DNA of 64,000 nt from Vulcanimicrobiota bacterium (lineage in GTDB: Bacteria > Vulcanimicrobiota > Vulcanimicrobiia > Vulcanimicrobiales > Vulcanimicrobiaceae): the NCBI GenBank assembly GCA_963714015.1, contig OY970223.1, positions 2,176,001 to 2,240,000 of the forward strand, written 5' to 3'. Under the pieces are notes generated by a model. The model was not told the origin of the DNA, searched no databases, and saw only the letters and a program-made list of their open reading frames with translations. Numbering within the stretch: position 1 is the first letter of the stretch; every line of letters begins with the position of its first letter. Positions 16,483 through 56,448 of this stretch are shown here, piece after piece. Both the position numbers and the translations under genes were made by a program.

Positions 16483-16553
16483 CGGAAATCCGGGATACCG
16501 CTCGCATCCCTCTTTCCTTATACTCAACGCAATACGTCTGTGGAGGACGACTC

Positions 16554-19500: not shown

Positions 19501-20415
19501 AGTGGGCGAATTACGCCGGCGTGCCGATCAATCCGGTCGACCCGTACAACGAAGCGATCCAGTATTACAATCAGTCTGACGTCCGCTTGCGGCGGCTCCA
19601 ACCCCTCACCCGTGCTCTGCGGCGACATGAGCGTCGTGGGGCCCCCGGCGCCGTGTTACACCAACAGCGGAACCGACTCGCCCGATCCCACCTGCGCACC
19701 CACGTCGATTCGCAACCCCTACTACAACATGCCGGCGCAGCCGCTGCTCGACAAGAACGGCTGGTACACGCCGGGGCTCGATTTTCCGTACGTTTCGCCG
19801 AACACGTTCTCGCTGGTAATGAACTACCGCCACGGTCCTTTTGCGATAACGCCCGCTCTTGAATTGGCGGAGGGAACCTCTTACGGAACGCCGGCGGACT
19901 TCCAGGGCTTGGACCCGCGCGTCTGTGGGGCAAATCAAGGTTCGATCGGCGTCAAGAGCGGAAATCCGCTCAACGCGGATTACACCTCGTGCGGGCTGGC
20001 CGCAACGCCGACCGGTACGTTGAACATTCCGAATCCTTATACCGGAACGTTCGACACGTTCGGCCAGTTTCAGCAGCCGTGGGATTTCAATTTAGGCTTG
20101 CAGGCCAGCTACGATCTCACGCGATCGGTGACCGCGAACCTGACGGTCACGAATTTGCTGAATCAGTGTTTCGGCGGATCGGCCGAGCCGTGGACCGCGG
20201 CGCACCCGCCCAGCCGCACCGTTTGCGGATACGGCTCGAACATCTTTTACATCAGCAATTTCTATAACGGCACGAGTCCCAACGACGTCTCTGCCAACGG
20301 CGTACCGCTCAATCCCGCATTTAGTCCGGCTTTCATGCCGGCGCCGGGCGACGACTCCGCGTACAACCTCACGTTGCCCCTGGAAGTATACTTCCAATTG
20401 CGGTTCAAGCTTTAG
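16554..20415 (+). CDS. TonB-dependent receptor (frameshift near 19575)
   Basis: GGAGGA RBS, signal peptide, GTTGGVSG carboxypeptidase-like domain, plug YIRGG/FDGVPVN, C-terminal YFQLRFKL; frames join at AGTCT 19573-19577. Confidence 0.9.
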
Positions 20416-29055: not shown

Positions 29056-29831
29056 AGATCGTTACCCTGAACTGCAACGGAATTCGATCCGCAGCGCGTA
29101 AGGGGTTCTACAGTTGGATGGAGGCGCAGGATGCAGACTTCATCTGTCTGCAGGAGACGAAGGCTCAGGAGCATCAGCTCCCGCTCGAAGCGGCGGCCGT
29201 TTCGCACTATACCGGCGTGTTTTTGGATGCCGAGAAGAAGGGCTACAGCGGCGTCGCCATCTATGCCAAACGCGAACCGCAAAACGTCGTTCGCGGCTTG
29301 GGCTGGCCGGAATACGACCGCGAGGCGCGATGGCTGCAGTTCGACTACGACGAATTCAGCATCGTTTCGCTTTACGTGCCGTCCGGCTCGATGGGCCCCG
29401 CGCGGCAGGCTGTAAAAGAAGCCTTTCTCGAAAAATTCTATCCGGAACTCGCGCGTTTGCGCGCGAGCGGGCGCACCTTCATCATCTGCGGCGACTTCAA
29501 TATTGCGCATAAGGAGATCGACGTTTACAACCCTATCCGGTGCAGCAAAATCTCCGGATTCTTTCCTCACGAGCGCGCCTGGATGGATCGCGTCATAACC
29601 GAACTGGGCTGGGTCGACGGCTTTCGCTCGGCCAACCCAGAGCCCAAACAGTTCAGTTGGTGGTCGAATTTTCAGAACGCGTTCGCGCGCAACAACGGCT
29701 GGCGCATCGACTATCACCTCCTCACGCCGGACCTGGGGCCGTCAGTGAAATCGGCCTCTATCTATCGCGAGGCGCGCTTCTCCGATCATGCTCCGGTACT
29801 TCTGGAGTACGATCTGGACCTTGGAGCATGA
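29052..29831 (+). CDS. xth: Exodeoxyribonuclease III / AP endonuclease
   Basis: NCNGIRS, CLQETK, KKGYSGV, GDFNIAH, GWRIDY, SDHAP. Confidence 0.95.
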
Positions 29832-32096
29832 ACCTGGTCTGCATCGGCGGCGGCCCGGCCGGATTGTACTTCGGGCTGCTGATGAAGAAGGCCGATTCGG
29901 GCCATCGCGTTCGCGTGATAGAACGTAACCGCCCATACGACACGTTCGGCTGGGGCGTCGTGTTTTCGGACGCGACGCTCGAGAATCTGCAGCGAGCCGA
30001 CGAAGCCACCCACGACGAGATTCGCGCGGGGTTCGCGCACTGGGACGACATCGAGATCCATTTCAAAGGGCACACGCTTCGCTCCGGCGGACACGGGTTC
30101 TCCGGCATCGGCCGCAAGCATCTGCTGAACATCCTGCAACGGCGCGCCGAAGAGCTCGGCGTGGAGCTCGTGTTCGAAAGAGAGGTCGCGGACCTCGGGC
30201 CGTACCGCGATGCGGATCTGATCGTCGCCTCCGACGGCATCAATAGCCGCGTGCGCGCGACGAACGCCGATCGCTTCCAACCCGACTTGGACACGCGCAA
30301 CTGCCGCTTCGTCTGGCTGGGAACGACGCTGCCGCTCGACGCGTTCACCTTCGTCTTCGAACGCACCGAGCACGGCTGGTTCACCGTCCACGCATATCGT
30401 TTCGACGAGAACACGAGCACATGGATCGTCGAATGCCGCGAGGAGACTTGGGTCGCCCACGGCCTAGATCGCGCCGATACCCAAACCACGCTGCGCTTCT
30501 GCGAGGACCTGTTTGCGCCGTATCTGCACGGCCACGCGCTGATGTCGAACAGCCCGCACCTGCGCGGCCGCGACTGGCTCAACTTCACGCGCGTCAGCAA
30601 CGCGCACTGGACCGACGGCAATATCGTGCTGCTGGGGGACGCGGCGCATTCGGCGCATTTCTCAGTGGGATCCGGAACCAAACTCGCTATGGAGGACGCG
30701 ATTGCGCTGCAGCGCGCCCTTTGCGAAGAACTTTCCATGACGGCTGCGCTCGAACGCTACGAAAGCGAACGGCGCATCGAAGTGCTGCGGCTGCAGAACG
30801 CGGCGCGCAACAGCACCGAATGGTTCGAAAACGTCGCCCGCTACGCGCAGTCTGCCGCCCGAACAGTTCGCGTACAGCTTGCTCACGCGCAGTCAGCGCA
30901 TCAGCCACGAAAATCTGCGGCTGCGCGACAAAAACTACGTCGAGTCGGTGGAGCGCTGGTTCTCACCCGCGGGCGAACCCGTGCCGCCGATGTTCACGCC
31001 GATCCGGCTGCGCGAACTCGAGCTGCGCAACCGGGTCGTCGTCTCGCCGATGGACATGTACAGCGCGATTGAAGGAACGCCGAACGACTTTCATTTGGTG
31101 CACCTGGGTGCGCGCGCGCTTGGCGGCGCGGGCATGGTCTATACGGAGATGACGTGCGTGAGTCCCGAAGGGCGGATTACACCCGGCTGCACCGGGATGT
31201 ACAAGACCGAGCACCTCGCGGCGTGGAAACGCATCGTCGATTTCGTGCATGAATGGAGCGGCGCTAAGATCTGCCTGCAGCTGGGACACAGCGGCCCCAA
31301 AGGTTCGACGAAACTGATGTGGGAGGGCATGGACGAGCCGCTCGCCGAGGGCAATTGGCCCGTCAGCGGACCCTCGCCGATACGGTACGGTCCGCAGAAT
31401 CAACTGCCGCGCGAACTCTCCTGCGCCGAGATGAATCACATTCGCAGCGAATTCGTGCGCGCGTCGGAAATGGGAGTTCAAGCCGGGTTCGACATGCTCG
31501 AGTTGCACTGCGCACATGGGTACTTGCTGTCGAGCTTCATCACGCCGCTGCAAAACCGGCGCAGCGACGAGTACGGCGGATCGCTCGAGAATCGCCTGCG
31601 CTATCCGCTCGAGGTCTTCGCGGCGATGCGCGCGGTGTGGCCGGAGCATTTGCCGATGTCCGTGCGCATCTCAGCTACGGACTGGGTTGAGGGCGGCATC
31701 ACGGCCGAGGACTCCGTCGAGATTGCGCGGGCCTTTAAAGCCGCCGGCGTGGATTTGGTCGACGTCTCGACCGGCCAAACCTCGCGCGAAGCGAATCCAG
31801 TGTACGGCCGCATGTTTCAAACGCCGTATGCGGATCGAATTCGCAACGAGGTCGGCGTCAAGACGATGGCGGTCGGCAACATTTTCGAACCGGACCACGT
31901 CAACGGAATCATCGCAGCGGGGCGCGCGGATCTCTGCGCGATCGGGCGGCCGCACCTTGCCGATCCGAACTGGACGCTGCACGCCGCCGCCCAGCTCGGG
32001 TACACCGGCCTGGAATGGCCCGTGCAATATTTGCCGGGCAAATCGCAGCTCGAGCGCAATTTGGCGCGTGCGGCGGAGATTTCCGGCCGCATATGA
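29828..32096 (+). CDS. abmA: Bifunctional anthraniloyl/salicylyl-CoA monooxygenase-reductase (frameshift near 30851)
   Basis: [34 protein letters not shown] flavin monooxygenase fused to an old-yellow-enzyme domain ([23 protein letters not shown]); repaired junction reads [16 protein letters not shown]. Confidence 0.9.
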
Positions 32097-32816: not shown

Positions 32817-33839
32817 CTACAGAATTGCTTTGACCAGGCCGCGGGGTGCGTCGCTCTGCACGCCGCGTGCGCGGCCCAAATAGAGCGCGAGCATCTGTCC
32901 GGCCACCAGCCACGAGAGCGGATCGAATGGTCCCGAATACAACGGTCCGAGCACCGGGAGATCTTCGGTGCGTTCGCCCACGACGTAGCCGAGCGCGCCG
33001 GCACCCAGCGCTTCGGTTAGGGCGCGTCGCACGAGGCGATCCGAGCGTTCGTCGATGATGCCCAGTATGGCGCATGAAGCGTCGAGCATCGCAGCACTGC
33101 CGTGACGGAATTCTCCGGCGGCAAAACCCTCGGCATGAAGGTAGCTGGCTTCTTTGATCTTCAGTGCGAACTCGCCGGCGATTGGCAAGCCGTAGCCGCT
33201 GCCGATTACGACGACGCTCGAACGCGTCGATATGCGCGCGGCCGCGTCGCGAACCGCGCCCGTGTCGGGGCTATTGAGCCACGTTTCGACGGCATCCGCG
33301 ATCCGCACGAGCGCTTCGGCACCGCCGGCGCCGTCCGTGCTCAGGAGCGCCGCCACCCATAGCAGTATCGCCGCCATGGCCGTGACCGTTTTGCTGGCGG
33401 GCACTGCGATCTCCTCACCGCAATCGGCGTGGATGCACAGTGTTGCGCGCCGGCCGAGCGGCGAATCGGGAGTGTTTGTGATCGCGATCAAACAGCTGGG
33501 CTGCAGCACGTCGAGCGCGTCGAGAACGTCCGTGGATTTACCGCTCTGCGAGCAGACGATTGCGGTCGTGCGCGCATAGACGACATGATCGATTGCCGCC
33601 TCGGTGGCCGCAATTGCCTGCGCCCGGACTCCTCGGCATCGCAGCGCAATCGCGCCCAGCTGCGCGACGAAGAGGGAACTGCCGCTGCCGATCAAGATCA
33701 CTTCCCGGCCCGCAATCGCGTCCGCGACCGCGCGCGCCTTATTTGTGGCGGCGAGCGCGCGCCAAATCGCCGGCTGTTCCCGAATCTCGCTCTCGAAGTT
33801 TGCCCCCAGCACGTTTCCGTTATCCGTTTGCGAAGTCAT
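32817..33839 (-). CDS. Double-SIS-domain protein, GlmS-isomerase-like (glucosamine-6-phosphate deaminase NagB-II-like)
   Basis: EIREQP, GSGSS, SQSGKS, VPASKT, ALKIKE...EF.HG; no glutaminase domain. Confidence 0.82.
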   Translation of the reverse strand: MTSQTDNGNVLGANFESEIREQPAIWRALAATNKARAVADAIAGREVILIGSGSSLFVAQLGAIALRCRGVRAQAIAATEAAIDHVVYARTTAIVCSQSGKSTDVLDALDVLQPSCLIAITNTPDSPLGRRATLCIHADCGEEIAVPASKTVTAMAAILLWVAALLSTDGAGGAEALVRIADAVETWLNSPDTGAVRDAAARISTRSSVVVIGSGYGLPIAGEFALKIKEASYLHAEGFAAGEFRHGSAAMLDASCAILGIIDERSDRLVRRALTEALGAGALGYVVGERTEDLPVLGPLYSGPFDPLSWLVAGQMLALYLGRARGVQSDAPRGLVKAIL

Positions 33840-35931
33840 GGCCCGAGCGTACCGCGCAGCACGGTGATCGACTGCGGCGCAAGCGTATAGGCTGAATCGG
33901 CATGCACGATCGACGTAACCGGCGGATTATCAGGACTAGGAGCGGACTGCGATCCGCGAGACCGCCAAACGTACTGATCGCTTCCGAACGTGACGCGCGT
34001 CACCGATCCGGTGAACGCGCGCGCGCCGGCGAATACCAATTTGACGGGCAGGCGGCACGCGCATTTGTTGACCAGCATGACGGACCAAGTATTCCCGGGA
34101 CGCTTTACGGGATACGCCGTCAGCAGCCGGCTGCTCGTGCGCGCGCGATAAAGGCGCTGCACGCGATTTGCCGGATCCAGCCACTGCCTTGCGATCATCT
34201 CGCCGCCGTAGAATTGGGCGCCGCGGGCGCGAATGCGCGCGTGGGCGTCCGCCACGAACATGGTGAGGTTACCCCAGTCGGCCGGACACTGCTCGTTCTG
34301 CGAGAGCGGGACCGGCTCGTACTGATAGTAGACGATCCCCTTCACGCCTTCTTCCAAGAAGCCCGCCATATAGTCCGCGAGCCATAAGGCGCCTTCAATC
34401 TGCATCGGCGTCTGCGTGAAGTTCACGGCCGAGAAGTTCGCTTCGGTGACGTACATCGGGACGTTCGGCGGAACACCGTCGCGGCGCCACGCGGAGACGA
34501 CGGTGTGGATGATGCCGCTCTCGCTCTCCAAGTCTTTGAGCAGGGCCGCGCCGTGCTCGCAGCCGTCGAACGGATAATGTTCGAACGACATGAAGTTCAG
34601 TTGGGCCAGAGCGCCGTGCGCGTGCAGATAATTGAGAAAACGGTTGAGCCACGAGACGTTTGCCGTGTGCATCCGGCCACCATTGCAAATCGGAGTTCAC
34701 ACCGGAGAAGACAGGGCCGCCGAGCGCCAATCCGGGAAACTTGCGGTGAATTGCGCGCGCCCATTGAACGTAGAGCGCGGCGTCATCTTCGGGCTCGATG
34801 TACTGTCCGTCGGGCTCCTCACCGAGCTCGATCCGTTCGATCGGATAGCCGCGCGCGTGCAGATATTGCACCTCGGCGACCGCGTTCTCCGGCGTGCTGT
34901 AGATCATGGCGACCGGATAGGTGCCGCCGAGTCCGCGCGTCAGTCCGCTGCGCGCAATGAGATCGAGCCCGGGCTGTTCCTGGTCGCGCACCCGGGTTGC
35001 CGCCGTATGCCATGGATCGACGGACGAAACGTACATTGCCGTTTGACGCAACCCGCAAGCGTAGCGCTTGGGCAAATATCCGCCGCAACGGCGCATGATG
35101 GACGTAATCGCTGAAGACGGTGCGGCGCAGGACGCCGACGGACAGCTCCTCGATCGCATAGCCGACGCAGTTGCGCTTGTCGGCGGCACCGTGGGAGTCG
35201 CAGGTATTCGACGACCTCGACATCAGCACGCGCACGAAGCGCGCGTTTATGGGTTTTCTCGCAAGACGCAGCGTAACCGTACTGCCTTGGCCGTTCGATG
35301 CGGCGCCTTGCGGGAAATCTTTCCAGGATCCGTGTGCGGGGTCACCGATCGCATCGCTTCCGGTCCAGTATGAAACGCGATACGCCGTCGCATACGGCGA
35401 GCCCCACGCGATGCGAACTGCGTTCACCGGCTTTGCCGCATTCAAATCCGCCACGACCCATTGGGGATGAAGCGCTTCGGATTCTCCGGTGAATGCGGAC
35501 GTCAAATACGGATTACTTTTCCAATAGGTCTTCGGATCGCCGTCGTCGATGCGCGAGTAGTCGGCGTTGTTCCCCTGATCGGTCGTGGAACCGCGATGCG
35601 GAAGACGGTAACCGAAGGAATCGGCGATCGGCGCGCCGGGGACTGCGCTGCTGGTCCAGTATCCGGCGTTGCCGGCGCTGAATGCGCCGGCGGGATTCCA
35701 GTGCCAATCTTGCGACGAAAGCTCGGTGAAGAGCCGGTAGCTGAGCCAGCCGAATCCCGGCTGCAGCATTTGGCGCACGTTCTCCGGCGAGTACAGGGCG
35801 GGAATCGTTCCGGCCGGCTCCTTGTCCACGGTGGACCCGACAGCGTCGCGCGCACGGAACGTGTTGACTGCATGCGAGGTGTCTACGTCGACGGTGACAA
35901 GTGACGCGAGCAGCGCGACGAGTTGAATCAA
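33836..35931 (-). CDS. Secreted clan GH-A-like glycoside hydrolase with inserted F5/8 (CBM32/discoidin) domain (frameshifts near 35088 and 34660)
   Basis: IDDGDPKTYW..., QWVVADL, ARFVRV discoidin motifs; ELGEEPD, GGP, SFEHYP and YVTE TIM-barrel motifs; C-terminal beta-sandwich LAPQSITVL. Confidence 0.72.
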
Positions 35932-37392
35932 CGGCGCACTGCGGCGCGGCGCGCGCGTGTCTGCGCAGGCCGCCGATGGCCCGACAGCGGCGAAGGCGCG
36001 TAGCCCGGACCGGATTCCGCAATCGGCGTCGAGATCGTGATGTCCGATTGACCGCTCGTGCCGGCGATCGGCGGTGCCTGAGGAACGCTGCCTGCCGATT
36101 TTTCGAGCGAGGCGACGGCTTCATACAGCGGGTAGTCGACGCCGATCGCCTGCACGGAGATCGTGTCGCCTTGGCCGGAGACGGGGAAGCTCGGCGTGTT
36201 TGCGGCGTTGTTGTCGGCGGCCGTGCAGATGCTCGGACTCGGCGTCAGATTTTGAACGCCGCCCCCGATGTTCGTGTTGGGTCCGTCCGCTGCGGGCAGA
36301 TTGTACGTTCCCGAGGACCTCACTTCGATCGTGTAATAGACCGGAGCGAATGCCGTGCCTTTGGGTCCTTGACAGTTGTTTGCCGTGCTTCCGGGCGTTC
36401 CCACAGGGCCCCAGTCGACGATCTGCACGAATTCCTCGGTGACGCCGCCGGGAACCGTTACTGCAAGTGTTGCGCCCCCGTCGCCGTTTGCATCCGGAAC
36501 GACGCGCGGAGCGCTAATCGCCGGCAGCACGATGCCCGCATTGAGATTGGCGGTCTGAGCGATATTGCTGACACTTTGCGAACCGCCGTTTCCGACGGTC
36601 GCAACGGCGACATTGAGCTTGTACGTTCCGGATCCGGCCGCGAGGCCTTCGAATACCGTGATTCCTTCGGCCAAGCCCAAGAAGTACGGTTGTCCGAAAG
36701 TATCGTCGCCTTGAACGGTAAGGCCGTCACGATCGCCCATGTGATCGCCGTTGGGGTCGAACGCCGGCGGACCGCCCCATGGGACGAAGAGCGGGTGCGT
36801 GCTTCCGTCGTCGTAGAGCGGCTGAGGATACGGCGCGTATCCGTCCGCCTGTCCAGTGACGGGATACGAGTTGAACGGCGCAAGGCCCATCGCAAAGACG
36901 CCGCCGCTCTGTCCGAACGTCGTAGCATTCGGCGGAATGTTGTTGGTACACGCGGTGAAGTTAGCGGGCACACTCCCCGTCCCGTCGCAATATGGAGTCC
37001 CCAATTGCACGAGTTGCGACGTGCCGGTGATCGCCGGAGTCGCTGCCGTCGTCTCGGACAAACTCGGTCCGGCGTTGGGAATCGTCGTATACGGATCTTG
37101 ATCGGCACCATTTGCAGGCGCTGCTGCTGCGCTTCCCCAGAGTGAAGGGACCGGTGATTTTCGGCGTATCCGCGCCGATTGCGGTTTGTCCGTTCGGCTG
37201 GCGCAGCGTCGAGACCACGTTCAAGCCGGTCGCGCTTCCGTAGATGTTCGCGGTTCCGACGGCAAACTGCAGTTTCGCGTAGCTCTGACTCGTCGGATTA
37301 ACGGAGCTGATCGGCACGCCTGCAGATCCGGCGCCGCAGCCGGCGATCGAGCCGCCGCAAAGAAGCGCGGCGATAAGGCGGAGTGTTTTCAT
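35928..37392 (-). CDS. Lipoprotein encoded directly after the TBDR (frameshift near 37136)
   Basis: MKTLRL...IAGC lipobox; two ORFs join at a G-run; Gly/Thr/Pro-rich beta-type sequence. Confidence 0.75.
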
Positions 37393-37401
37393 CGTTGTCT
37401 C

Positions 37402-40400
37402 CTAGAGGGCAATCTGCAGATAGAACCGGTACGTGCGTCCGGGTACGTAGAATTCTTGGAACGGCAGCCAGTACTGATCGTAGTAGCTCTCGTTACGTCC
37501 ACCGGCCAGGTAAATCGGATTAGGAACGCCGCCTTGCACGATCGGGTAGTCGACGGCGTATTGGCCGGTCTGTGCGCCTCCGACGCCCGTGGCGACGGGT
37601 TGCCAATCCGTGTTCGGCTGCGGCTGTCCGCGATAGTTATCGAACAGGTTGCTGACGTAGACGCCCCACGTCAAGCGATCGTGCGTATATTCCAGATCGA
37701 GATCCGAATACAGGCGCGGCGCGGTGAACGCTTGTCCGGCAAGCGCGGGCTCGTTGTTGCCGCGGCATGCGAAATCTCGCGGATTCAAGTAACTTCCCGG
37801 ATCGGCCGGATCGACGTAGCACGTCGCGTCGATGGGTAAATTCGGACCAGCGGCACCAGCGTATGGCGTCGCGACGCCGAGGTTTCCGGTCGGCATGTGA
37901 TAGAGCACGCCGTTGATGTAGCCGATTGCATCGCGGCCGACGCCGAACGGCTCGCCGCCGTCGAAGTCCAAAATCGGATTCACCCGAATCCCGCCCTTCG
38001 TCGCGTAAGTAATACCTGCGCGCGCCGAGAACGGCGGCAGGAAGCTCTGATGGAAAAGCACGTTTGACTCGTACAAGAACTGCTGCGCGATCGGCAGGCT
38101 GTCGGACCCGCTGACCGGCGGTGTGTCCGTGAGTTCATTGATGTAGTTTGCCGTCAAAAATCCGCTCCAGCCGTACTCGCGCACCGGCGTCGTGAGCATG
38201 AACTCGACACCGAGCGCTTTTTGCAATCCGGTTTCACGCTCTTGAAATGAGCCGGCCGTCTGCTGTCCCGTGACCGGGTTCGGCGGTCCGTTGTTGAGTT
38301 CGACCGTTTGGAACGTATCGAAACCGCGGCGCGCGTAGCCGGTCAACTTCATGCCCCAGGCGTTCTTGAATTGATGCTGATAGCTGAGGTCCCAATTGTT
38401 GTACGTCGACGGACGCTGGCCGCCGTAATCCGGCGCGCTATATCCCTGGTCAAAATTCCAGTACAGCGCTTCGGCGTAATTCGGGCACTTGAAGAACCAG
38501 CCGGAATATGGATTGGCCGGCGTGCCGATGATGTCGGCGCCGCCGAAGTACACGTTGGGATTTTGCGTGTACGTACCGTTCCCGTTGGTGCCCGGTCCGT
38601 GCCAGCCGCTGCCGCAGGCCGGATTTCCGGCCGAGTCCTGGGCCGGAATCTGATAGAGGATCGGGTTAATGTTCTCGAGCGAGCTCGGCGTGCCGGCGTA
38701 CTGACCGAAGAAGTCGCTGACGGAGCGTCCGAAACTGACTCGTGCACTGTCGTTTTGGTCGAAGATGTAATCGACCGACGCGCGCGGCTCCAGATCGCGC
38801 GGCCTAAGAAACGTATTCGGCAACTGCGCGAAGCTCAGTCCCACGTCATACGGGTTGGAAAGATCCGCGCTGAACGGATTTGCACCCCACTTCAGATTCT
38901 GTCCGTCCATGCGCACACCGTAGTCGATGTTCCATTTCGCACTCGGCGTCCATTGGTCACGGATGCCGACGCCGAAATCTTGGAAGTCGGTGTTGTGATA
39001 GTTCCAGCCCGCGGTCGGCATCGCCGGCAATTGCCCGTTCCATTTGCCGTTCGCCAGCATCCACGAATAGATGTAGCAGCCTTCTTGGGTCGGTGTTTGG
39101 GTGAAGGCGTTGTCGAGCGCCGGTCCGATGCAGGGATTGCTCGCGCTGACCGGTTGTCCCGGATTCACGCGGCAGATACCAATCCCAAATGCGCGGGCCG
39201 TTGGGAGCGTACTGCGACTCGAGAATAGGGGACCCGCTGTATCCGGTGATTTGCTGGTCGTACGACTGCGCGTTGTTGAGGCCCGTCCAGGTGTTGCCGT
39301 CGTTCTGCTGATTCCAATACGGGAAGTTGTTTTCGAACTTGCCGACGAGCGTGAGAATATGTTTCTCGCCCGCCTGCACGACCAGTTGGGACTGCACGCC
39401 GGTCGAACGGCTCCCCTCGGGATTGTAGCCGTTGACGAAATATCCGTCGCCGCCGTCGGTCAAATCGGAATAGTTTCCGGTGATGTTGGACTCGTTCAGG
39501 CCGCCCCAGTTGTAGAAGAAGGTATTCCAGGTCGCGTTTCGGCTCAGTTGCCGGGTGTAACCGATCTTCAAGACGTCGTCGGGTCCGAGATTGTTCTGCT
39601 CCGGCTGAGTGACGGGAACGGACTGGAACGGATTCGACGGATGCGGAACACCTTGCACGTAGGTCAGAATCGAATCGTACCACGCGAGTTGATCCGCGGG
39701 ACTGCACTGCTGGACGCCGGGCGGAAGCGGAAAGTAGCAGCCCCACATGCTGTTGCCGTTGTAGTCCGTTTGCGCGAAGCCGTAGTTCGCCGGATTCCAG
39801 GGATAATACGCAGCCTGCGCGAGGCCGCCGTAGTTCGCCCACGAGCGATGATCGATAAAGTCCGCGAGCACTTGAAGTTGCTGATCGTTGTTGCGGCCGA
39901 AGCGGTAGACGAAGTTGTTCAGAACGTCGTCATCGTACGTCAACGACGTTCCGAAATATGCGCCCACGTCAGCGGCGCTGCGTCCGTAGGGCGCATACTG
40001 CGGCACCGACCGATCGGCGCGAACGGAGAAGAAATCCGAGAAACGCCCATTCTTTGTGGCGGTGCCGTATTGGAACGCAAACGCGTGGTCGTACCACGGC
40101 GACCCCATGTCGAAACTCATGAAACCGTCGCCGGGATACGAACCGCGCCCGGGTATCAAATTCACGACGCCCGCGCCGATGCCGCCTTGCGTCGCGTCGC
40201 CCGCGCCGCTGACGACCTGAAGCGAGCCGCGTCCCCCGCCGATGCCGTTGAGGAATCCGGCGTCGGGGTTTTCATCAAAGAATGCGCCGCGGAAGTCGAT
40301 GCCGTCGAACTGATAGCCGATGTCGACGCTCGCGGATCCGCGAATGGAGAATGCGGCATTGGTTCCCACTTGCGCCGTTTGGATGACGCCCGGTGCCGAT

Positions 40401-40912
40401 TCGACCAGGGTGTTGTAATCCGTGGATCCTTTTTCACCCAGCGCCTGATCGACGCGCGCGCCGCTGAACGTGGTCTCGTCCGTCGTTTGATGCGGCTCGA
40501 AAGCGGAGGATTGCGATCGCGCCGTGACGTGCGCCACAGTCTTCAACGACCCGGACAATCGCACCGTCGCCGCCGTATTCGTTTCATCGCCGAAGACGGC
40601 TACGCCGGTCAACGCGAACGCGTCGTAGCCGTTTTTTTCGAAGGACAGATTGTACGTGTCCGCCGGCAACTGCAAGAATGAATAGTAGCCGTGGTTGTCC
40701 GTAGTCGTTTGGAACCTGCCGGACGGAGAATTGGCGATCACCTGGACCCCCGCCAGGGGCGCGCCGCCCGACGCATCGAGAACGATTCCCCGGAGGTTTC
40801 CGGTGATTCCGCCGGCAGCGGATGCCGCAAGCGGCTGCGCTATACACGTAAAGACGATGGCGGCAAAAGCGATCCAAGACAGAAGGCGGGCAAAGCGAGA
40901 GGTCATGAACAT
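37402..40912 (-). CDS. TonB-dependent receptor (frameshift near 39170)
   Basis: AAGGAG RBS, signal peptide, carboxypeptidase-like domain, FSIRGS, FDGID, GAGVVN plug, C-terminal PGRTYRFYLQIAL. Confidence 0.9.
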
Positions 40913-40962
40913 CGGTTGCTCCTTACGGTCACGGGCGCACGGGCGCTTCGAGGGCTTTTTAT

Positions 40963-40985
40963 TTTTACTAAGGAAAGTAAGTCCT
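40963..40985. promoter_or_regulatory. Candidate ROK repressor operator (copy 1)
   Basis: Minus strand AGGACTTACTTTCCTTAGTAAAA in the divergent TBDR/ROK intergenic region; 21/23 identical to 55027-55049. Confidence 0.7.
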
Positions 40986-41028
40986 CCTTGCTTGTTTTGG
41001 CCCCTGCGGCTCTGATACGGTAGGCACA

Positions 41029-42265
41029 GTGAACCTCAATCAGCGAGGGCGCTTGAGCCTCGCCGCGGACCAGCCTGTGATGATGCGCCGCCGGAACATC
41101 AGCGCCATCATGCGGACGGTCCTGGCCAACGGGCCGCTCTCGCGTTCGGAGATTGCCGAGCGAACCGGCCTTAGCCCCGGCGGCGTCACGAAACTTACGG
41201 CAACACTGCTGTCCGCAGGATTGCTCCGGGAAGTCCAAGGCCAGTTCGGCCCCGCCTCCGTGTTGGGACGTCCGCGCGTACCCGTGGAGATCGACGATCG
41301 TTTGCATGTCGTCGTGGGCTTGCACATCGGCACGCAGTGGACCACGGTCGGTATCGTCGATTTGGCCGGACGCCTCATCCATCAAGAACTCTTTGCGCGC
41401 GACGATAGAGACCCGGCGGTGGTCTTGCGGGAAGCAAAACGCTACTCGGAGACGCTGCTCGGCAAACACGCGCCCGCGAGCAACGTGATCGGGGTCGGCG
41501 TGGCGATCGGCGGCTGGATCGACACGGAACTAGGCGCCGTCGTCGAGCATGCGGCGCTGGGGTGGAAAAACGTTCCGCTGCTCGAGATGCTTCGCGGAAC
41601 ATTTGCATATCCGGTCCGGCTGGACAGTACCGTGCGGGCAATGGCGCTGGCCGAAGGCTGGTTCGGCACCGCAGTCGGCGCGCAGAACTGGGTGCAGACT
41701 CTTCGTCGCCAATGTCGTCGGAGCGGCGATCTCGGTCGAGCACTCGATTCAGCGCGGTCCGCAATCTGCCGCAGGCGACCTGACGCACCTGCCGATTCGC
41801 GGCGCGCACGGGATCATGACGTGCACGTGCGGCCACCGCAACTGCTTTCAGGTCGTCGGCAGCGATCAGGCCGTGCTTACCGCTGCGCGCGACCGCAAGA
41901 TCGTGCCGAAGGCGCATGTCCTCAAAGACGTCATCGAAGCGGCACGCGGCGGAAATTCTGCGGCGCAGAAACTGCTGCGCGACCGCGCGCGCGTCGTCGG
42001 TCAGGCGGCGGCGCTGATCTTTGAATTGATCAATCCCGACGTGACGGTTCTCGCCGGCGGCATCATCCACGCGCCCGAGTATTTGGACGATCTTCGAACC
42101 GCGGTCGCACGGCACGTTCATCGGGATATCGATCTGGAGCAGCGTATTCTGCCGAGCATTTTGGGCGAAGACGCGTATCCCATCGCTCCGGCAGCACTGG
42201 TTTTATCGGAATACTATCGCGATCCGATGGCTTTCGAACCGCTGCTTTCGTTCGCCGCGGAATAG
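41029..42265 (+). CDS. ROK family transcriptional repressor (frameshift near 41698)
   Basis: N-terminal HTH (GPLSRSEIAERTGLS...GRP), GVGVAIGG, ALAEGWFG, CTCGHRNC zinc motif; frames join at AGACT 41696-41700. Confidence 0.9.
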
Positions 42266-42456
42266 TCATGACGACACTGACCGCGTAATAGGCGCGCCCG
42301 ATTGGCCGCTAGCGTTAGCTGCCTGAGCCGGCGTGTACTATTCATTAAATAAGCTCGATACTGCCAAACTTCCTTAACAAAAAGCGGCAAGCGGACGATA
42401 ATACACTCGTGCCAGCCGCGATCTTTGAGACCGGCCGATTTTACTACTGTGCCGGC

Positions 42457-43059
42457 ATGCGGATAGTTCATGGTAACGCGCCATACATAAGGCGCTGCTT
42501 TCGTATTGCCTGCGCCCACGTAGTCGCTGCATCGTTTATTGCTGCTTGCGGGCCGGTGCCCGCAAACCCGGGGACGGCTCCGTCTTCGCAGCCGACGGAT
42601 TCGCCTTCTGCTAATCCCACGCCGCCCGTGGGCTCTCCGGCTCCGACGCCGTCCTCAAGCCCACCGGTAGGTTCGACGCCAGCCCCGTCGCCCAGCGCAA
42701 CCCCGAGCTCATCGCCGTCTTGCACATCCGGGTGCATTCCCGTCATCATCCCGATCCCAACCCCTGCGCCGAATCCGACGTCTACCCCCGGATTCGGCCC
42801 GCTTTTCTTTCCGGACGGCGGTTCCGGAAATTGCGCCGCCGGTCTCCAAATCGACGCGCCTTCGGGCGTTGCCGACACCAGGGTGACGGAAAGCCGATAT
42901 TTCGGAGTCTTTTCCGTTGCAAATCCCAATCCGTCCGTGGCGAGCGCGGCGATCCAAAACAACGTGTTGACGATCGACGCACTTGCCTCGGGCTCGACCC
43001 GCCTAACGGTTTCCGATTCGTTTGGAAATTCAAACGCGTGTCAGGTCAACGTTCCATAA
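42457..43059 (+). CDS. Pro/Ser/Thr-rich lipoprotein with C-terminal Ig-like module
   Basis: Lipobox IAAC, PSPTP-rich linker, NPSVASA...LTIDAL.SGST.LTVSD; start uncertain. Confidence 0.65.
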   Translation: MRIVHGNAPYIRRCFRIACAHVVAASFIAACGPVPANPGTAPSSQPTDSPSANPTPPVGSPAPTPSSSPPVGSTPAPSPSATPSSSPSCTSGCIPVIIPIPTPAPNPTSTPGFGPLFFPDGGSGNCAAGLQIDAPSGVADTRVTESRYFGVFSVANPNPSVASAAIQNNVLTIDALASGSTRLTVSDSFGNSNACQVNVP

Positions 43060-43093
43060 CACCACGCTAATAATCGCCAGAAATGGAGTTCTC

Positions 43094-44531
43094 ATGTACA
43101 CGAACCTAGGAGGGTTTAGAGCGGCATTAGCAGCCGCAGCAGCGATCTCACTGACGCTAACGGGGTGCGCAGGATCGACGACAAAAGCGGTACCGGCGCT
43201 TCAGCATAACGCGAAAGTGCTGGTCCACATCATCATGGATAATGGCAGCAGTCCGGCCGGCCATCGCATCAAACAGAGCAGCAATCACAGCCGGCGGCCG
43301 ATGTTCGTCTCGCCGTCCACGAACGGTGCGCAAGTAACGGTCACCGATCATTCGACGCATGCAGCGATATGGAGCGGCGTTGCGGATCTTTCCTCCGGAT
43401 CGGGAAGCTGCGTGGCGGGCCCTCCTCGCACTTGTACGATTGCGATGAACTTGGACCAAGGCGGCAATTTCGACTTCCAACTGCAAACGTACGATGCGGC
43501 TCCGGTAAGCGGAGTCATTCCCGGAGGCGCTAATCGAGCTGGGCGTTTCGACCGTGACGCAAACGATCGTCCTCGATCAATTAAATAGCGTCACGTTCCT
43601 GCTATCCGGCATCGTCGTAGGGCCGCCAGGTGTTTCTTGCAGTCCTTCGTGCGGCGCGCTGACCTATGCTTCATTGCCCGCGGACGGGGCCACCCATTCT
43701 TTTGGCTTCACCTTCACGTTCTACGATGAAGATGGAAACCCGATTACCGGTTCGGCGCCGTTCAGTTCGCCGGTCGCGGTGTCGTTGGTGGAGTCCGGAG
43801 GATCGGGACATATGCAGCTGCTGCTTAACGGTACGCCGTCGGGCACAAGCGTTAATCTAACGTATCCGACGGACAATCTCGCCGTTAAGTACGATGGCGG
43901 CGGAGCTGCGGGCTACACTTCAACGATCACGATCGGCGGAGCGACGGTGCAGATTTCTCCAATGTTCATCGCACCGGCCGGGCTTACGATCAACACGAAT
44001 ACGAGCACCAATACGCCGGCGATCACGGAAAACGGTGCGCCTTCTGCGACGGCCTACTCGGCCAGTACCGCTTGCGCGCAAATCACCTCAACGAGCGTTA
44101 CCGGTACAGGCGCTTCAGCAACGCTGAACGTTTCGACGAGCGCGCCCCAGGGTGAGACTGAATCGTGCACCGTCCAAGTGACGGACGTGTACGGAACGAC
44201 GTACAACTACCCCGTGACCTTCGCCGTGTATGGGCCGATAACCGCAGGGTCGGTCACTTTCACCGGCGGCGGGCAGGGCAGCTGCTCGTCGAGCATTCAG
44301 TTCGGTGCGGCAAATCAAACCGCCGGGTTCACACTGAGCGATCCCGGCTTCCCGGGCACCTACACGGTGTCGAACCCAACGCCGGCGGTGGCGTCGGCTT
44401 CGGTTTCCGGAGCAAACGTCACCATCACCGCGTTGACCGCCGGAACGACTACCGTAACGTTCGGCGACGGGTCGGGCAATGTGTTGACTTGTCCGGTAGG
44501 CGTCACGATCACCGGCGGATCGGTGCAGTAG
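43094..44531 (+). CDS. Surface lipoprotein with Ig-like modules (frameshift near 43535)
   Basis: GGAG RBS, lipobox LTGC, Thr/Ser/Gly-rich beta-strand sequence; repaired junction GANELGVSTVTQTI. Confidence 0.72.
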
Positions 44532-44548
44532 GAATAGGAAAAGGAAGG

Positions 44549-46534
44549 ATGCGCATGTCCACCGTCGCGCGCCGCAGCGTTTCAGTATTAACGAGCATCG
44601 TAATGCTGTCGCTTACGGCGTGCGGCGCTGGACGCAGCGGAACTCCGCTCGCACCGCTTCCGTCTCCGCACGCATCGGGCAAAGGAAAGGCCCGAGTGGT
44701 CGTGCTGATCGCGAGCGAAGCCGATCGAGCCGCTGCACGCGCCGCCGAGCCGGCCAAAAGCCGGACGCGTATGTGGGTCTCACCTTCCAGCATGGGGCTT
44801 GAAGTGCAGGATGGTCCGCACGGGTCGCCTCCGACCGATACGGAGGTCTTCGACATATCCTCCGGGGGACCAAACTGCACGGCGACTTCTCCCCGGTCGT
44901 GCACGCTCTACATGAATCCACCCGTCGGCAACGATGACTTCACCATTACCACGTACGATCAAAAACCCGTCGGCGGCACGATACCTTCAACCGCAAAGGT
45001 TCTCGGGGAAACCGCTACCGTTGCGCAGACGATTACACTGGATACGCTCAACACGCTCAACTTCTACGTCGGCGCGGTGCTTGCGGGGGTGTCGTATAGC
45101 GGGGGCCTGAGTTACGAGTCGCTCCCTGCAAACGGATCTGCGCAAACGATGGCGATGGATCTCATTCCGGTTGACGCTGACGGGAACGTTACGCAAGGCG
45201 GCGCGAACGACCCTTACAGCAACCCGATTTCCGTGACGCTCGGTGAAACCGGCGGCTCGGGGCATGCCAGCCTTTGGCTCAACGGTTCGAACGTGGGCAC
45301 GGCGGCGACGATCGCCCACTCGTCGGACAGTTTGGTACTGCACTACGACGGCGGCGGCTTGCCGGGATACTATACGAGTACGTCCGTTTCAGCCTCGGGA
45401 GCAACCGGCTCCACGCTGCAGATGTCGCCCATGTACGTGACGGCGCCGTGCGGCCAGTACTGTTTGGGCAACTTGACGTACACTTCGGGGATTCAGAGCG
45501 TCGGATTTACGATCTCGGAGGCTGCTGCGCCGCCCTCAATTACGTATGCAGCCGACTTTAGCGGCTGCAACGTCACGACCTCGGGCATCTCCGGCAGCGG
45601 CGCTTCGGCGAGCGACACGATTGAGTCGGACGATCTTCAGACCGCCGCATCGAATTGCACCGGCACGTTTTCCGATTCAAGCGGGACGAGCATAAATATT
45701 CCGACCTCGATCCCGGCCGCCGTCCAGCATTGCTCGAGCGGGCCTGCCGGCGCGCAAATCGATGCGAATACGGTTTCCACGGGGAGCCGCTGCCCGTTAA
45801 CCGTCTCGACGTACCACACGTGGGAGTATTACCCGGCGGGGCCAGGCGGCGCCTATTCCACCAGCATGCCCTTTTCCGTCAGTGAAACGAACGATACGAC
45901 GCCTTTGAGCGTAAGCAATACGTGCAGCGGTGATGCGACCGTATCGCCTAGTTCCGTTCCGGGCGGCGCCTCTTTGGCGTCGACGGCTGCGGGCACCGTT
46001 ACGCCGACTGCAACCACTGCAAACGCCGTTTGCGGCATTACCGTAAGCGACGGCACGCAGACCCAAACGATCGACGTAAACACGTACGCGCCGAACGTGC
46101 TGACGAATTCGCTCGTCACCCAGCCGAATTGCGTCGCAGCCTTGTCTTCGTCAAACGGCTATCTCTACGACTGCACGTTCCATTTTATTACGCCATACGC
46201 GGTCAGCGCCTCGGATCCGGTCGGCATAGAGAGAATATCGAACAGCATCCCCGCGCCCATCGCCTACACGATCTTGGGCAACGAATACGTGGGTGACTGC
46301 TCGGATCCGACGCCCAAACCGCCGTCGTACTCCAATTGGACGAACGTCGCATTCCAGAGCGGCGCAGGCATAGCCGCAGGACAGACGTCCAATTCCAGCC
46401 TTCCGCTCACCGGAGAGATCACGTCACTGCCGGGAACGGCGGCGAACGGCCAAATATGCGGCTATTTTGAAATGTCGGTTCGCGGACCGGCCGCTACGAC
46501 GTTCACGCTGCAGTACGCTATCGACCAAACGTAA
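44549..46534 (+). CDS. Surface lipoprotein with Ig-like modules (paralogue of upstream gene)
   Basis: Lipobox LTAC; shares RM(F/W)VSPS, PR.CT, TYD and QTI.LD.LN with the 43094 protein. Confidence 0.78.
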   Translation: MRMSTVARRSVSVLTSIVMLSLTACGAGRSGTPLAPLPSPHASGKGKARVVVLIASEADRAAARAAEPAKSRTRMWVSPSSMGLEVQDGPHGSPPTDTEVFDISSGGPNCTATSPRSCTLYMNPPVGNDDFTITTYDQKPVGGTIPSTAKVLGETATVAQTITLDTLNTLNFYVGAVLAGVSYSGGLSYESLPANGSAQTMAMDLIPVDADGNVTQGGANDPYSNPISVTLGETGGSGHASLWLNGSNVGTAATIAHSSDSLVLHYDGGGLPGYYTSTSVSASGATGSTLQMSPMYVTAPCGQYCLGNLTYTSGIQSVGFTISEAAAPPSITYAADFSGCNVTTSGISGSGASASDTIESDDLQTAASNCTGTFSDSSGTSINIPTSIPAAVQHCSSGPAGAQIDANTVSTGSRCPLTVSTYHTWEYYPAGPGGAYSTSMPFSVSETNDTTPLSVSNTCSGDATVSPSSVPGGASLASTAAGTVTPTATTANAVCGITVSDGTQTQTIDVNTYAPNVLTNSLVTQPNCVAALSSSNGYLYDCTFHFITPYAVSASDPVGIERISNSIPAPIAYTILGNEYVGDCSDPTPKPPSYSNWTNVAFQSGAGIAAGQTSNSSLPLTGEITSLPGTAANGQICGYFEMSVRGPAATTFTLQYAIDQT

Positions 46535-55026: not shown

Positions 55027-55049
55027 AGGACTTAGTTTCCTTAATAAAA
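55027..55049 (+). promoter_or_regulatory. Candidate ROK repressor operator (copy 2)
   Basis: AGGACTTAGTTTCCTTAATAAAA ending 17 nt before ATG 55066; 21/23 identical to the site at 40963-40985. Confidence 0.7.
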
Positions 55050-55065
55050 TAATAGTCCCGGACTC

Positions 55066-56448
55066 ATGGCGCTCACCGAATCTTCAGATGAATCCGGGAC
55101 CGGGCGGCCCCGACGGCGGCTGACGCTGTGGGATCTGATCTTTTACGGCATAATCCTTATCCAGCCCATCGCGCCGGTGCCGCTTTTCGGGGTCGCACAG
55201 CAACTTTCGAACGGCCACTTCGCCACGATCATTCTCATAGCGATGGCGGCGATGATGATCACGGCGGTCAGTTACGGGCGGATGGCCGCGGTCTATCCGG
55301 CCGCCGGGTCGGCATATACCTACGTGGGCAAAGGGCTGAATCCGCATTTGGGGTTTTTGGCCGGCTGGGCAATGTTCATGGACTATCTGCTGCAGCCGCT
55401 CATCAATACGGTTTTCATTTCGATGGAACTGCACGCGCGGTATCTGAAGGCCGTTCCGTACGCGGTACTGGCATTCGTCATCGCTGCAATTCTTACGGTT
55501 TTGAATCTGCGGGGCATTCGGACTTCGGCAAAAGCAAATAAAGTTTTGCTCCTTTTCATGTTCGTGGTCATCGCCGCGTTCGTGCTGCTCGCACTGGAAT
55601 TTTTATTCCGCACGCAAGGCTGGGGCGGCGTACTCTCGACCCAGCCGTTCTACGATCCGGCGACCTTCAACTGGACTCGCATCTGGACCGCCACCTCGTT
55701 TGCCGCGCTCACGTATATCGGTTTCGACGGCGTCACGACACTTGCGGAAGACGCGCAGAATCCTAAGCGCAACATAATGCTCGCCACGGTTTTGGTGTGC
55801 GCATTCACCGGCGTCTTCGGCTGCTTGGAAGTGTATCTGGGGCAGCGCGTATGGCCGAACTGGCAGACGTTTCACGATCTCACGACCGCGTTCATGGACG
55901 TCTGCAGCCGAGTCGGCGGACCTTGGCTTTTCAATGGAATGGGCGTCATTCTGATTCTCGCTGCGTTCGGCAGCGGACTGACCGGAGCACTCGGCGCCTC
56001 GAAGCTGCTCTTCGGCATGGGCCGTGACAACGTGCTGCCGCGCCGCGTCTTCGGGCATTTGAGTCCGAACAGCACGACGCCCAGTTACAACATCGTGATT
56101 ATCGGCGTGCTCACGCTGGTAGGGGCAGTTCTGCTCAATCGCTACGGCAACGCGTACGAGCTCGCGGGAGAGATGCTGAATTTCGGCGCCTTTCTCGCGT
56201 TCATGGGCGTCAATTTCGCGGCGTTTTGGCAATTCTCCGTACTAGGTTGGAAGGGGCTGCGCCGGGAGGTGATCGCCGACGCGGTGCTGCCGCTCGCGGG
56301 ATTCGCATTTTGCGCGGCGATCTGGTGGAACCTCAATCCCCTTGCAAAGACCGTCGGCGGAATCTGGTTCGCCCTCGGCATTCTCTATCTGATCGTCAAA
56401 ACACGCGGGCTGCGCCGCGCCCCGGTGATGATCGACTTCAGCGGCTGA
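55066..56448 (+). CDS. APC family permease (PuuP/PlaP-like)
   Basis: LTLWDL..YGI..IQP.AP, SYGRMA..YP.AGSAYTY, GFDGVTTLAED, MGRD.VLP. Confidence 0.9.
   Translation: MALTESSDESGTGRPRRRLTLWDLIFYGIILIQPIAPVPLFGVAQQLSNGHFATIILIAMAAMMITAVSYGRMAAVYPAAGSAYTYVGKGLNPHLGFLAGWAMFMDYLLQPLINTVFISMELHARYLKAVPYAVLAFVIAAILTVLNLRGIRTSAKANKVLLLFMFVVIAAFVLLALEFLFRTQGWGGVLSTQPFYDPATFNWTRIWTATSFAALTYIGFDGVTTLAEDAQNPKRNIMLATVLVCAFTGVFGCLEVYLGQRVWPNWQTFHDLTTAFMDVCSRVGGPWLFNGMGVILILAAFGSGLTGALGASKLLFGMGRDNVLPRRVFGHLSPNSTTPSYNIVIIGVLTLVGAVLLNRYGNAYELAGEMLNFGAFLAFMGVNFAAFWQFSVLGWKGLRREVIADAVLPLAGFAFCAAIWWNLNPLAKTVGGIWFALGILYLIVKTRGLRRAPVMIDFSG

Follow-up and report, generated by a model that had tools for sequence, protein, structure and literature searches.

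The question raised by a cluster of five genes at positions 32817 to 42265 of a 64,000-nt stretch of the genome of a Vulcanimicrobiota bacterium (contig OY970223.1, positions 2,176,001 to 2,240,000; the whole stretch is referred to here as the window) is which substrate its products take up and degrade. A first-pass annotation of the window had proposed the uptake and breakdown of de-acetylated amino-sugar polymers. This proposal was supported by the active site of the hydrolase encoded in the cluster, the neighbors of its homologues, synteny, the conserved residues of the SIS protein, and a shared operator-like site. The best explanation is that the cluster provides ROK-controlled uptake and hydrolysis of β-linked glucosamine (GlcN) oligomers or polymers of the chitosan type, centered on a clan GH-A-type hydrolase with a Glu-Glu motif. 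Judging from sequence, we put the probability of this explanation at roughly 60%.

The cluster consists of four genes on the minus strand, for a double-SIS protein, an exported hydrolase, a lipoprotein, and a probable TonB-dependent receptor, and one divergent plus-strand gene for a ROK-family regulator, separated from the receptor gene by 116 nt. Because adjoining minus-strand genes either overlap by 4 nt (SIS/hydrolase and hydrolase/lipoprotein) or are 9 nt apart (lipoprotein/receptor), the four form a single tight operon. The initial description of a ROK gene divergent from a tightly coupled receptor-lipoprotein-hydrolase-SIS operon was thus borne out, with all five genes present where they had been placed. 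Its statement that the window has no gene for NagA or a sugar kinase also held, as none was found among the window open reading frames (ORFs) scanned with Pfam; NagA and two ROK kinase-like genes are present elsewhere in the genome. The cluster contains frameshifts, which are considered below, and intact orthologues from one of two same-genus genomes (G001 and G002) served as the frameshift reference (G001).

The hydrolase gene (33836 to 35931, minus strand) is spread over three reading frames, being broken near 34659-34663 and again near 35087-35092; residue numbering follows P0001, its intact 703-aa orthologue in G001. As previously annotated, the protein carries a carbohydrate-binding module of family 32 (CBM32). 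The F5/8 type C model (PF00754; cut-off, 28.2 bits) scored 45.7 bits with the window piece and 43.4 bits with P0001, in which the domain spans residues 118 to 245, and it matched all 35 family members examined. Outside this domain, no Pfam or NCBIfam model matched the window pieces or P0001. Homologues begin with ordinary signal peptides and are numerous, with 1353 cluster representatives at an E value of ≤1e-3 (255 at ≤1e-30). Species-representative genomes contain the family in at least 590 places, for the most part, to judge by record title, in Acidobacteriota.

Solved structures were searched with a profile of the 35 family members (A1), and a second profile was restricted to the catalytic domain (A2; 36 rows, because 1 of the 37 chosen, L088, was removed for an internal stop). 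The nearest solved catalytic domain was that of the glycoside hydrolase family 79 (GH79) β-glucuronidase AcGlcA79A from Acidobacterium capsulatum (E values of 1e-7 with A1 and 4.6e-6 with A2), and GH39 β-xylosidase structures matched A1 at an E value of 4e-6. The Pfam GH39 model (PF01229) matched 6 of the 35 members (best E value, 7e-7) and gave no match to P0001 itself, and the Pfam GH79 model matched neither P0001 at an E value of ≤1 nor any of the 35 members at ≤0.01. The structural neighbors of an ESM Atlas model of the hydrolase (pTM, 0.90) were GH44- and GH39-like. Judged against Pfam and NCBIfam, the hydrolase is an unclassified family of clan GH-A type. Literature searches returned no account of the hydrolase family or of comparable Eremiobacterota loci, which is not proof that the family is unpublished. 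An intact paralogue, 49% identical, that keeps the Glu-Glu pair and the nucleophile lies at G000:C1:40100-42277 of the same genome (L015 8101-10278). It is oriented divergently to a glutamine synthetase gene and has a gene for an extracytoplasmic function (ECF)-type sigma factor downstream.

The active site bears on the identity of the substrate. In the A2 alignment, the family motif LGEEPD lies over LGNEPD of GH79, and TETN lies over TETN. At the position aligned to the nucleophile Glu of TETN, structure 5l77, presumably a GH79 nucleophile mutant, has Q. Because these motifs align with the GH79 acid/base and nucleophile, Glu375 is likely the acid/base and Glu499 the nucleophile of a retaining enzyme of clan GH-A type. 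E371, G373, E374, E375, E453, and E499 were invariant in the family alignment. The Asn that precedes the acid/base Glu in the NEP motif of clan GH-A is not kept in the family, and Glu374 occupies its position instead. The "EE" catalytic motif noted earlier is therefore real: the Glu-Glu pair was invariant in the A1 and A2 alignments, and it was present in 82 of 87 hydrolase ORFs from 78 loci in other genomes and in every one of the 94 representatives (of 150) that cover the region.

How other enzymes read the C2 substituent at this position has been described (PMC6566704). In GH35 and GH42 galactosidases, the Asn of the Asn-Glu motif is hydrogen bonded to the C2 hydroxyl, and in the GH35 exo-β-D-glucosaminidase GlmA, Asp178 stands at the Asn position and binds GlcN at its C2 amine, which is protonated; GlmA D178N is inactive. 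The GH2 enzyme CsxA instead handles the C2 amine via a distant Glu394, according to the same source. By the GlmA precedent, an invariant acidic residue at the clan Asn position of a second, unrelated clan GH-A family argues specifically that the -1 subsite takes a 2-amino sugar, the C2 amine of which Glu374 would bind. The nearest solved relatives of the CBM32 were chitosan-binding modules of Paenibacillus chitosanase/glucanase (E value of 1e-9 with A1, about 80 residues aligned), and this likeness is weak evidence of specificity.

Genes for amino-sugar metabolism recurred beside the hydrolase in the 78 loci, which came from other genomes, mostly of Acidobacteriota, and extended up to 10 kb on either side of the hydrolase gene. 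ORFs in these loci were called crudely (longest ORF, greedy) and clustered, and each frequent cluster was named from one representative. The recurrent neighbors were sugar-acid-type major facilitator superfamily (MFS) transporters (29 of 78 loci), NagB-like proteins with best NCBIfam matches, below cut-off, to glucosamine 6-phosphate (GlcN-6-P) deaminase (24 loci), DgaE-family pyridoxal phosphate (PLP) ammonia-lyase-like proteins (19 loci), RidA (17 loci), pyrroloquinoline quinone (PQQ) dehydrogenases (16 loci), TonB receptors (15 loci), KduD-like short-chain dehydrogenases/reductases (SDRs) (14 loci), RraA-type aldolases (11 loci), SMP-30 lactonases (9 loci), PfkB proteins resembling 2-keto-3-deoxygluconate (KDG) kinase (7 loci), 2-keto-3-deoxy-6-phosphogluconate (KDPG) aldolases (5 loci), GH2 proteins with an exo-β-D-glucosaminidase Ig domain (4 loci), carbohydrate esterase family 4 (CE4) deacetylases adjacent to the hydrolase (4 loci), and amino acid-polyamine-organocation (APC) permeases in two clusters (4 and 3 loci). 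A hydrolase ORF was called in 73 loci, and in 23 of these the NagB-like gene was its immediate neighbor; locus L061 has the gene order hydrolase, GlmS-like SIS protein, GH2. NagA was found in none of the 78 loci and GH18 in one (tblastn with the source genome's own proteins, E < 1e-8).

One set of genes recurs beside the hydrolase in Acidobacteriota, with a DUF4380/mutarotase-like protein, PQQ dehydrogenase, SMP-30 lactonase, a sugar-acid MFS transporter, KDG-kinase-like PfkB, a DgaE-like lyase, RidA, and KDPG aldolase. It is found in L031, L036, and L037 (about 1-9.8 kb) and also in L039, L049, L053, L059, L068, L072, and L090. With names taken from one representative per cluster, this set reads as a putative oxidative route, independent of the phosphotransferase system (PTS), from glucosamine via glucosaminate to KDPG. 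When the source genome was searched by tblastn with the acidobacterial NagB-like, DgaE-like, GH2, CE4, PfkB, and KDPG-aldolase proteins, no match reached E < 1e-6, and thus the oxidative glucosaminate route is not part of the source organism's version of the system.

The product of the last gene of the operon (32817 to 33839, minus strand) is a 340-aa, GlmS-like double-SIS protein, with two Pfam SIS domains and a match to the isomerase half of GlmS in NCBIfam. It scored below every NCBIfam cut-off: 147 bits with the GlmS subfamily, 83 bits with NagB-II (NagB_SO3506; cut-off, 430), and 71 bits with GlmD (cut-off, 580). Among solved structures, the matches were to the isomerase domain of Escherichia coli GlmS (E value of 2.8e-22), NagB-II 8eol (2.9e-17), GlmD-type 2cb0 and 2dec (about 1e-13), and the FrlB-like deglycase 3eua (6.5e-8). 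When aligned to E. coli GlmS (1jxa), the protein keeps S347, Q348, S349, T352 (as S), E481, K485, E488, H504, and K603. In GlmS, S347/Q348/S349/T352 bind phosphate, and the listed positions are the sugar-phosphate-binding and catalytic residues of the isomerase. The protein lacks a glutaminase domain and, with its two SIS domains and the GlmS isomerase residues in place, has the features of the NagB-II/GlmD type; it is predicted to be a GlcN-6-P deaminase/isomerase. A true GlmS is encoded in the source genome (818 bits), and NagB-I is missing from it (best score, 31 bits). A second GlmS-like SIS gene, 59 to 61% identical, is located at G000:C1:1338000-1343100 (L097 4007-9101), where it adjoins genes for a GH18 chitinase, a sugar MFS transporter, and CutC in a separate, chitin-type locus. 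One SIS deaminase seems to serve the chitinase locus and another the glucosamine locus.

The regulator gene (41029 to 42265, plus strand, with one break near 41693-41703) encodes a protein with an N-terminal winged helix-turn-helix (Pfam HTH_24/MarR_2 at residues 25 to 68) and a ROK domain in both pieces. Its best NCBIfam matches, below equivalog cut-offs, were NagC and Mlc, and the best solved relatives of its G001 orthologue were the ROK regulators 1z05, Lmo0178, and Mlc. CsnR, the repressor of a Streptomyces chitosanase, is likewise a ROK protein (PMC3048496). An operator-like 18-mer lies in the 116-nt ROK/receptor intergenic region (40967 to 40984, plus strand), and a second copy with two mismatches (55028 to 55045, minus strand) lies 20 nt upstream of the gene for an APC-family permease (55066 to 56448, plus strand; Pfam AA_permease_2 and AA_permease). 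The 18-mer had two matches in the window versus none in 100 shuffles of the window, and the entire 3.56-Mb genome has no further site with three or fewer mismatches, the next-best sites having four. Related sites occur at both places in G001 and at the ROK/receptor intergenic region in G002. A scan of positions 40800 to 41150 for consensus promoters and terminators found none. About 4 kb of the window downstream of the regulator gene (42409 to 46534) has no counterpart between the ROK gene and the AlkZ-like gene in G001; the proteins encoded there are rich in Ser/Thr/Pro/Gly, start like lipoproteins, and belong to no Pfam family.

The claim that the APC permease shares the operator with the cluster is borne out by this distribution, as the operator-like site occurs only at these two places genome-wide and related sites are present in a sister species. 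The G001 orthologue of the permease is 76% identical and has a related operator-like site upstream. In four Eremiobacterota loci outside the source genus, a different APC permease is encoded between the SIS and receptor genes, to which the window permease is only about 23% identical. This looks like non-orthologous replacement and adds weight to the view that the system includes an APC carrier. In the window, a RidA-family gene and a 501-aa ORF without a family (56476 to 58379) converge on the operator-bearing permease gene; in the acidobacterial loci, RidA is found together with DgaE as well.

The long outer membrane protein encoded at the head of the operon (37402 to 40912, minus strand; about 1170 aa, with a break near 39158-39170) is probably a divergent TonB-dependent receptor. 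This assignment is based on the signal peptide in its translation, a CarboxypepD_reg domain above the Pfam cut-off, a sub-threshold Plug match (19.3 to 19.8 bits versus a cut-off of 23.9, with E ≤ 0.1 in five of six family members), its size, and a paralogue beside a TonB_C protein. The N-terminal domain resembles the N-terminal extension of SusC (PDB 9hfj; E value of 0.004), and it was the only part aligned in PDB searches (single sequence and profile) and in hhalign comparisons with an acidobacterial TonB-dependent receptor and a Plug-positive window protein. The first-pass annotation of a TonB-dependent receptor needs correction in that no model recognized the barrel and the Plug match was below cut-off. 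The adjacent gene (35928 to 37392, minus strand, with one break between 37097 and 37138) encodes a lipoprotein that belongs to a family restricted to Eremiobacterota and has an N-terminal lipobox ending in Cys. It had no Pfam or NCBIfam match, including no SusD/RagB signature, and its ESM Atlas model (pLDDT, 0.28) had no neighbor above a TM score of 0.3. Hence, the suggested likeness to a SusC/SusD locus stands as an analogy of gene order and fails for the lipoprotein, which is not SusD-like by any of these tests.

Two paralogous receptor-lipoprotein pairs are encoded elsewhere in the same genome (G000:C1:3197992-3202660 and G000:C1:1104166-1108453; L105 and L106), and the lipoprotein is for this reason probably a generic partner of such receptors. 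One pair adjoins a TonB_C/tetratricopeptide repeat (TPR) protein gene, and the other adjoins genes for a ROK kinase-like protein and an SDR, with an APC permease gene 4 kb downstream. The pairing of receptor and lipoprotein looks like a general module of this lineage. Four further segments of the window (4150 to 5517, 7503 to 10820, 16353 to 19862, and 62712 to 63812) encode another APC permease and three more receptor-like proteins, of which one has a Plug match above the Pfam cut-off, one has CarboxypepD_reg only, and one matches a TonB-dependent barrel.

Conservation of the gene set was evaluated in 301 genomes of the phylum Eremiobacterota, with unpublished genomes included in the hydrolase (one genome), lipoprotein, and SIS tallies. 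Both same-genus genomes keep the full set of ROK, receptor, lipoprotein, hydrolase, and SIS genes, and other genera arrange the genes as SIS, APC permease, receptor, lipoprotein, hydrolase, and second hydrolase, with no ROK gene. The hydrolase family was found in just 19 of the 301 genomes, the lipoprotein family in 114 (families f1 and f3 only), and SIS relatives at E ≤ 1e-70 in 105. A strong lipoprotein orthologue (E ≤ 1e-120) was detected in 16 genomes, all of which have the hydrolase. The two genes lie on one contig, no more than about 1 kb apart, in 15 of these 16 genomes, and in 12 of the 15 the SIS gene is on the same contig within about 5 kb of the lipoprotein gene. Thus, the SIS, lipoprotein, and hydrolase genes are conserved together in 12 genomes from six genera (g1, g10, g31, g44, g47, and g58), which runs counter to the lack of joint conservation that would have refuted the first-pass annotation.

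A pathway consistent with these observations can be outlined. The receptor and the adjacent lipoprotein would capture and import GlcN oligomers, and the exported retaining hydrolase would cleave β-glucosaminidic bonds, with Glu374 pairing with the protonated amine at C2 of the sugar in the -1 subsite, as Asp178 does in GlmA. The APC permease, as its operator and the in-operon APC genes of sister genera suggest, may carry GlcN into the cytoplasm, where it would be phosphorylated by a kinase encoded elsewhere; the genome has the two ROK kinase-like genes. The SIS protein could then convert GlcN-6-P to fructose-6-phosphate and ammonia, as its conserved residues suggest. Both at the divergent promoter and at the permease gene, the 18-nt site is presumably bound by the ROK protein, which GlcN or one of its derivatives would release.

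Several observations weigh against chitosan-type glucosamine utilization. No GlcN marker of the five considered was found within 10 kb in 40 of the 78 loci, and in an 84-gene FastTree phylogeny 41 hydrolase genes, including a clade of 13, had no marker within three genes. Of the marker-positive genes, 25 of 43 belong to one Terriglobia clade, and the NagB-adjacent cases are not independent because most of them (25 of 34 rows) fall in it; markers did occur in all three major clades of the tree, with at least 11 state changes forced by well-supported branches. The names of the neighbor clusters each depend on one representative, and the NagB-like and DgaE-like scores are below NCBIfam cut-offs. 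The SIS protein itself is far below the NagB-II and GlmD cut-offs, so that deglycase or other isomerase activity would be compatible with its scores. No family model recognizes the barrel of the receptor, the locus has no kinase gene, and we know of no APC permease that is a GlcN carrier. A candidate extracellular enzyme for cutting the polymer was not found: the genome has no GH46 match, and tblastn with the acidobacterial GH2 glucosaminidase was empty. A search of the genome for GH75 was also empty and is uninformative, as the control found GH75 in 0 of 14 control genomes. Finally, the window copy has five frameshifts, of which just one has been shown to be absent from an independent contig (depth, 2.4).

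The main rival keeps this machinery and changes the polymer from β-1,4 chitosan to another β-linked glycan that contains GlcN, such as partly de-acetylated poly-β-1,6-N-acetylglucosamine of biofilms or a GlcN-rich bacterial or fungal exopolysaccharide. The linkage is not fixed by sequence, and the Glu-Glu pair and the NagB/SIS neighbors speak just for GlcN at -1; in addition, the specificity of the CBM32 is unreadable from a profile match of 1e-9. However, the GH2 proteins with an exo-β-D-glucosaminidase Ig domain and the CE4 deacetylases (four loci each) point to chitin or chitosan, and the CBM32 modules closest among solved structures come, by their description, from chitosanases. On this evidence, we consider a different GlcN glycan unlikely.

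It is also unlikely, in our estimation more so, that in this genome the locus is a cluster of pseudogenes in decay, irrespective of what it did ancestrally; this possibility is orthogonal to the question of the substrate. It is suggested by the five frameshifts in about 9.4 kb, two in the hydrolase gene and one each in the lipoprotein, receptor, and ROK regulator genes, relative to the intact G001 genes. However, indels are not confined to the locus, because a flanking gene (29828 to 32093), the orthologue of a 755-aa fusion of FAD monooxygenase and old-yellow-enzyme-type reductase in G001, is also split, by a frameshift near 30850. Among public sequencing runs, one DNA run (X1) and no RNA run was found to contain the region. 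In X1, a contig of 188 nt at a depth of 2.4 lacks one base at 39170, and omission of that base restores the receptor to one open frame of 1180 aa. Run X1 covers 19 of 30 bins; both hydrolase break sites fall in uncovered bins, and at the lipoprotein and ROK break sites, where its coverage is thin or partial, no indel was reported. The broken pieces retain 70 to 89% identity to G001, and the source genome, although a single contig of 3.56 Mb, has a marker completeness of just 89.6%, which is low for a closed contig. For these reasons the five frameshifts are most likely assembly errors.

Another possibility is that the hydrolase acts on a non-amino β-glycoside, such as a glucuronide or xyloside, and that amino-sugar genes accompany it by coincidence or because the glycan is mixed. 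The closest solved catalytic domains are indeed β-glucuronidases and β-xylosidases; KduD-like SDR, KDG kinase, and sugar-acid-type MFS genes lie near acidobacterial members, and 40 of the 78 loci show no GlcN marker. In contrast, the Asn that binds the 2-hydroxyl in the clan was never present, with Glu in all 94 site-covering representatives. The NagB-like gene as immediate neighbor in 23 of 73 loci also argues for an amino sugar, and the combination of DgaE, RidA, and KDPG aldolase fits the catabolism of glucosaminate rather than that of uronates. Thus, action on a non-amino glycoside seems improbable. A further alternative is a fructosamine (Amadori) system like E. coli frl, with a glycated amine imported by the APC permease, the SIS protein acting as a 6-phosphate deglycase, and the hydrolase and receptor serving an unrelated step. 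It would match the FrlA/FrlB pairing of an APC permease with a double-SIS protein and draws on weak FrlB matches (NCBIfam E value of 3.9e-4; PDB 3eua, 6.5e-8), but it is very improbable given the far stronger matches to GlmS, NagB-II, and GlmD, the NagB-like genes that occupy the SIS position beside the hydrolase in Acidobacteriota, and the lack of an frl-type kinase in the locus.

Glucosamine-polymer utilization would have consequences beyond this genome. Fungi and arthropods supply soil with chitin and chitosan, a major pool of its carbon and nitrogen. The chitosanase families known so far are small, with members chiefly from Firmicutes, Actinobacteria, and fungi. If the hydrolase family is a glucosaminidase family, hundreds of "hypothetical" genes in Acidobacteriota and Eremiobacterota would gain a function, and clan GH-A would have a second, independent case in which a C2 amine is read by the residue before the acid/base. 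A broader proposal, which we offer tentatively and at slightly under even odds, is that the hydrolase founds a new clan GH-A β-glucosaminidase/chitosanase family, marked by the Glu-Glu motif, that is abundant in soil Acidobacteriota together with NagB and oxidative (PQQ dehydrogenase, lactonase, DgaE, and KDPG aldolase) routes and that forms in Eremiobacterota a SusC/SusD-like module in which the lipoprotein is specific to the phylum and glucosamine is carried by an APC-type permease. On this proposal, chitosan-degrading machinery would have been identified in two dominant, poorly cultured soil phyla. Both chitosanases and amino-sugar loci that depend on a receptor are already known; the enzyme family, the Glu-Glu motif, the lipoprotein partner, and the APC link were not met in the literature searched.

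Among known systems, GlmA/GlmD of the chitin pathway of the archaeon Thermococcus kodakarensis offers a mechanistic parallel, as it combines a GH-A enzyme in which an acidic residue before the acid/base binds the C2 amine (PMC6566704) with a glutaminase-less, GlmS-like SIS deaminase. However, the hydrolase described here has no detectable similarity to GH35, has Glu-Glu rather than Asp-Glu, and contains an inserted CBM32; the SIS protein scored 71 bits with GlmD versus its cut-off of 580; and the host is a diderm bacterium with an outer membrane receptor, a lipoprotein, and a ROK repressor. GH79 AcGlcA79A (PDB 3vny and 5g0m) aligns with the hydrolase at the acid/base and nucleophile motifs and over part of the C-terminal β-sandwich, whereas it keeps Asn-Glu and lacks the CBM32 insertion, and the profile match has an E value of just 1e-7 to 5e-6. 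The Paenibacillus CBM32 modules DD1 and DD2 (2rva, 2rv9, and 4zz5) are the best solved relatives of the F5/8 type C domain. There, the module is a C-terminal appendage, whereas here it is internal, and the likeness is by profile match over about 80 aligned residues.

Among complete utilization systems, those of Shewanella and Xanthomonas for N-acetylglucosamine and chitin pair a TonB-dependent receptor with NagB-II and, for acetylated sugars, with NagA and NagK. The probable receptor and the predicted SIS-type GlcN-6-P deaminase of the present locus resemble this pair, but NagA is absent here and in all 78 loci. The CsnR regulon of Streptomyces is similar in having a ROK repressor and a short operator at a chitosan-related promoter (PMC3048496). 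It governs a GH46 chitosanase and an operon for the uptake of chito-oligomers, whereas a hydrolase of another family, an outer membrane receptor, and an APC permease are found here. Finally, SusC/SusD loci of Bacteroidota have the same order of receptor, lipoprotein, and glycoside hydrolase under one regulator, and the N-terminal domain of the receptor resembles that in 9hfj. The present lipoprotein lacks a SusD/RagB signature or recognizable fold, the receptor has no SusC/RagA NCBIfam match, and the phylum is a different one; the locus represents a receptor-lipoprotein-hydrolase module outside Bacteroidota.

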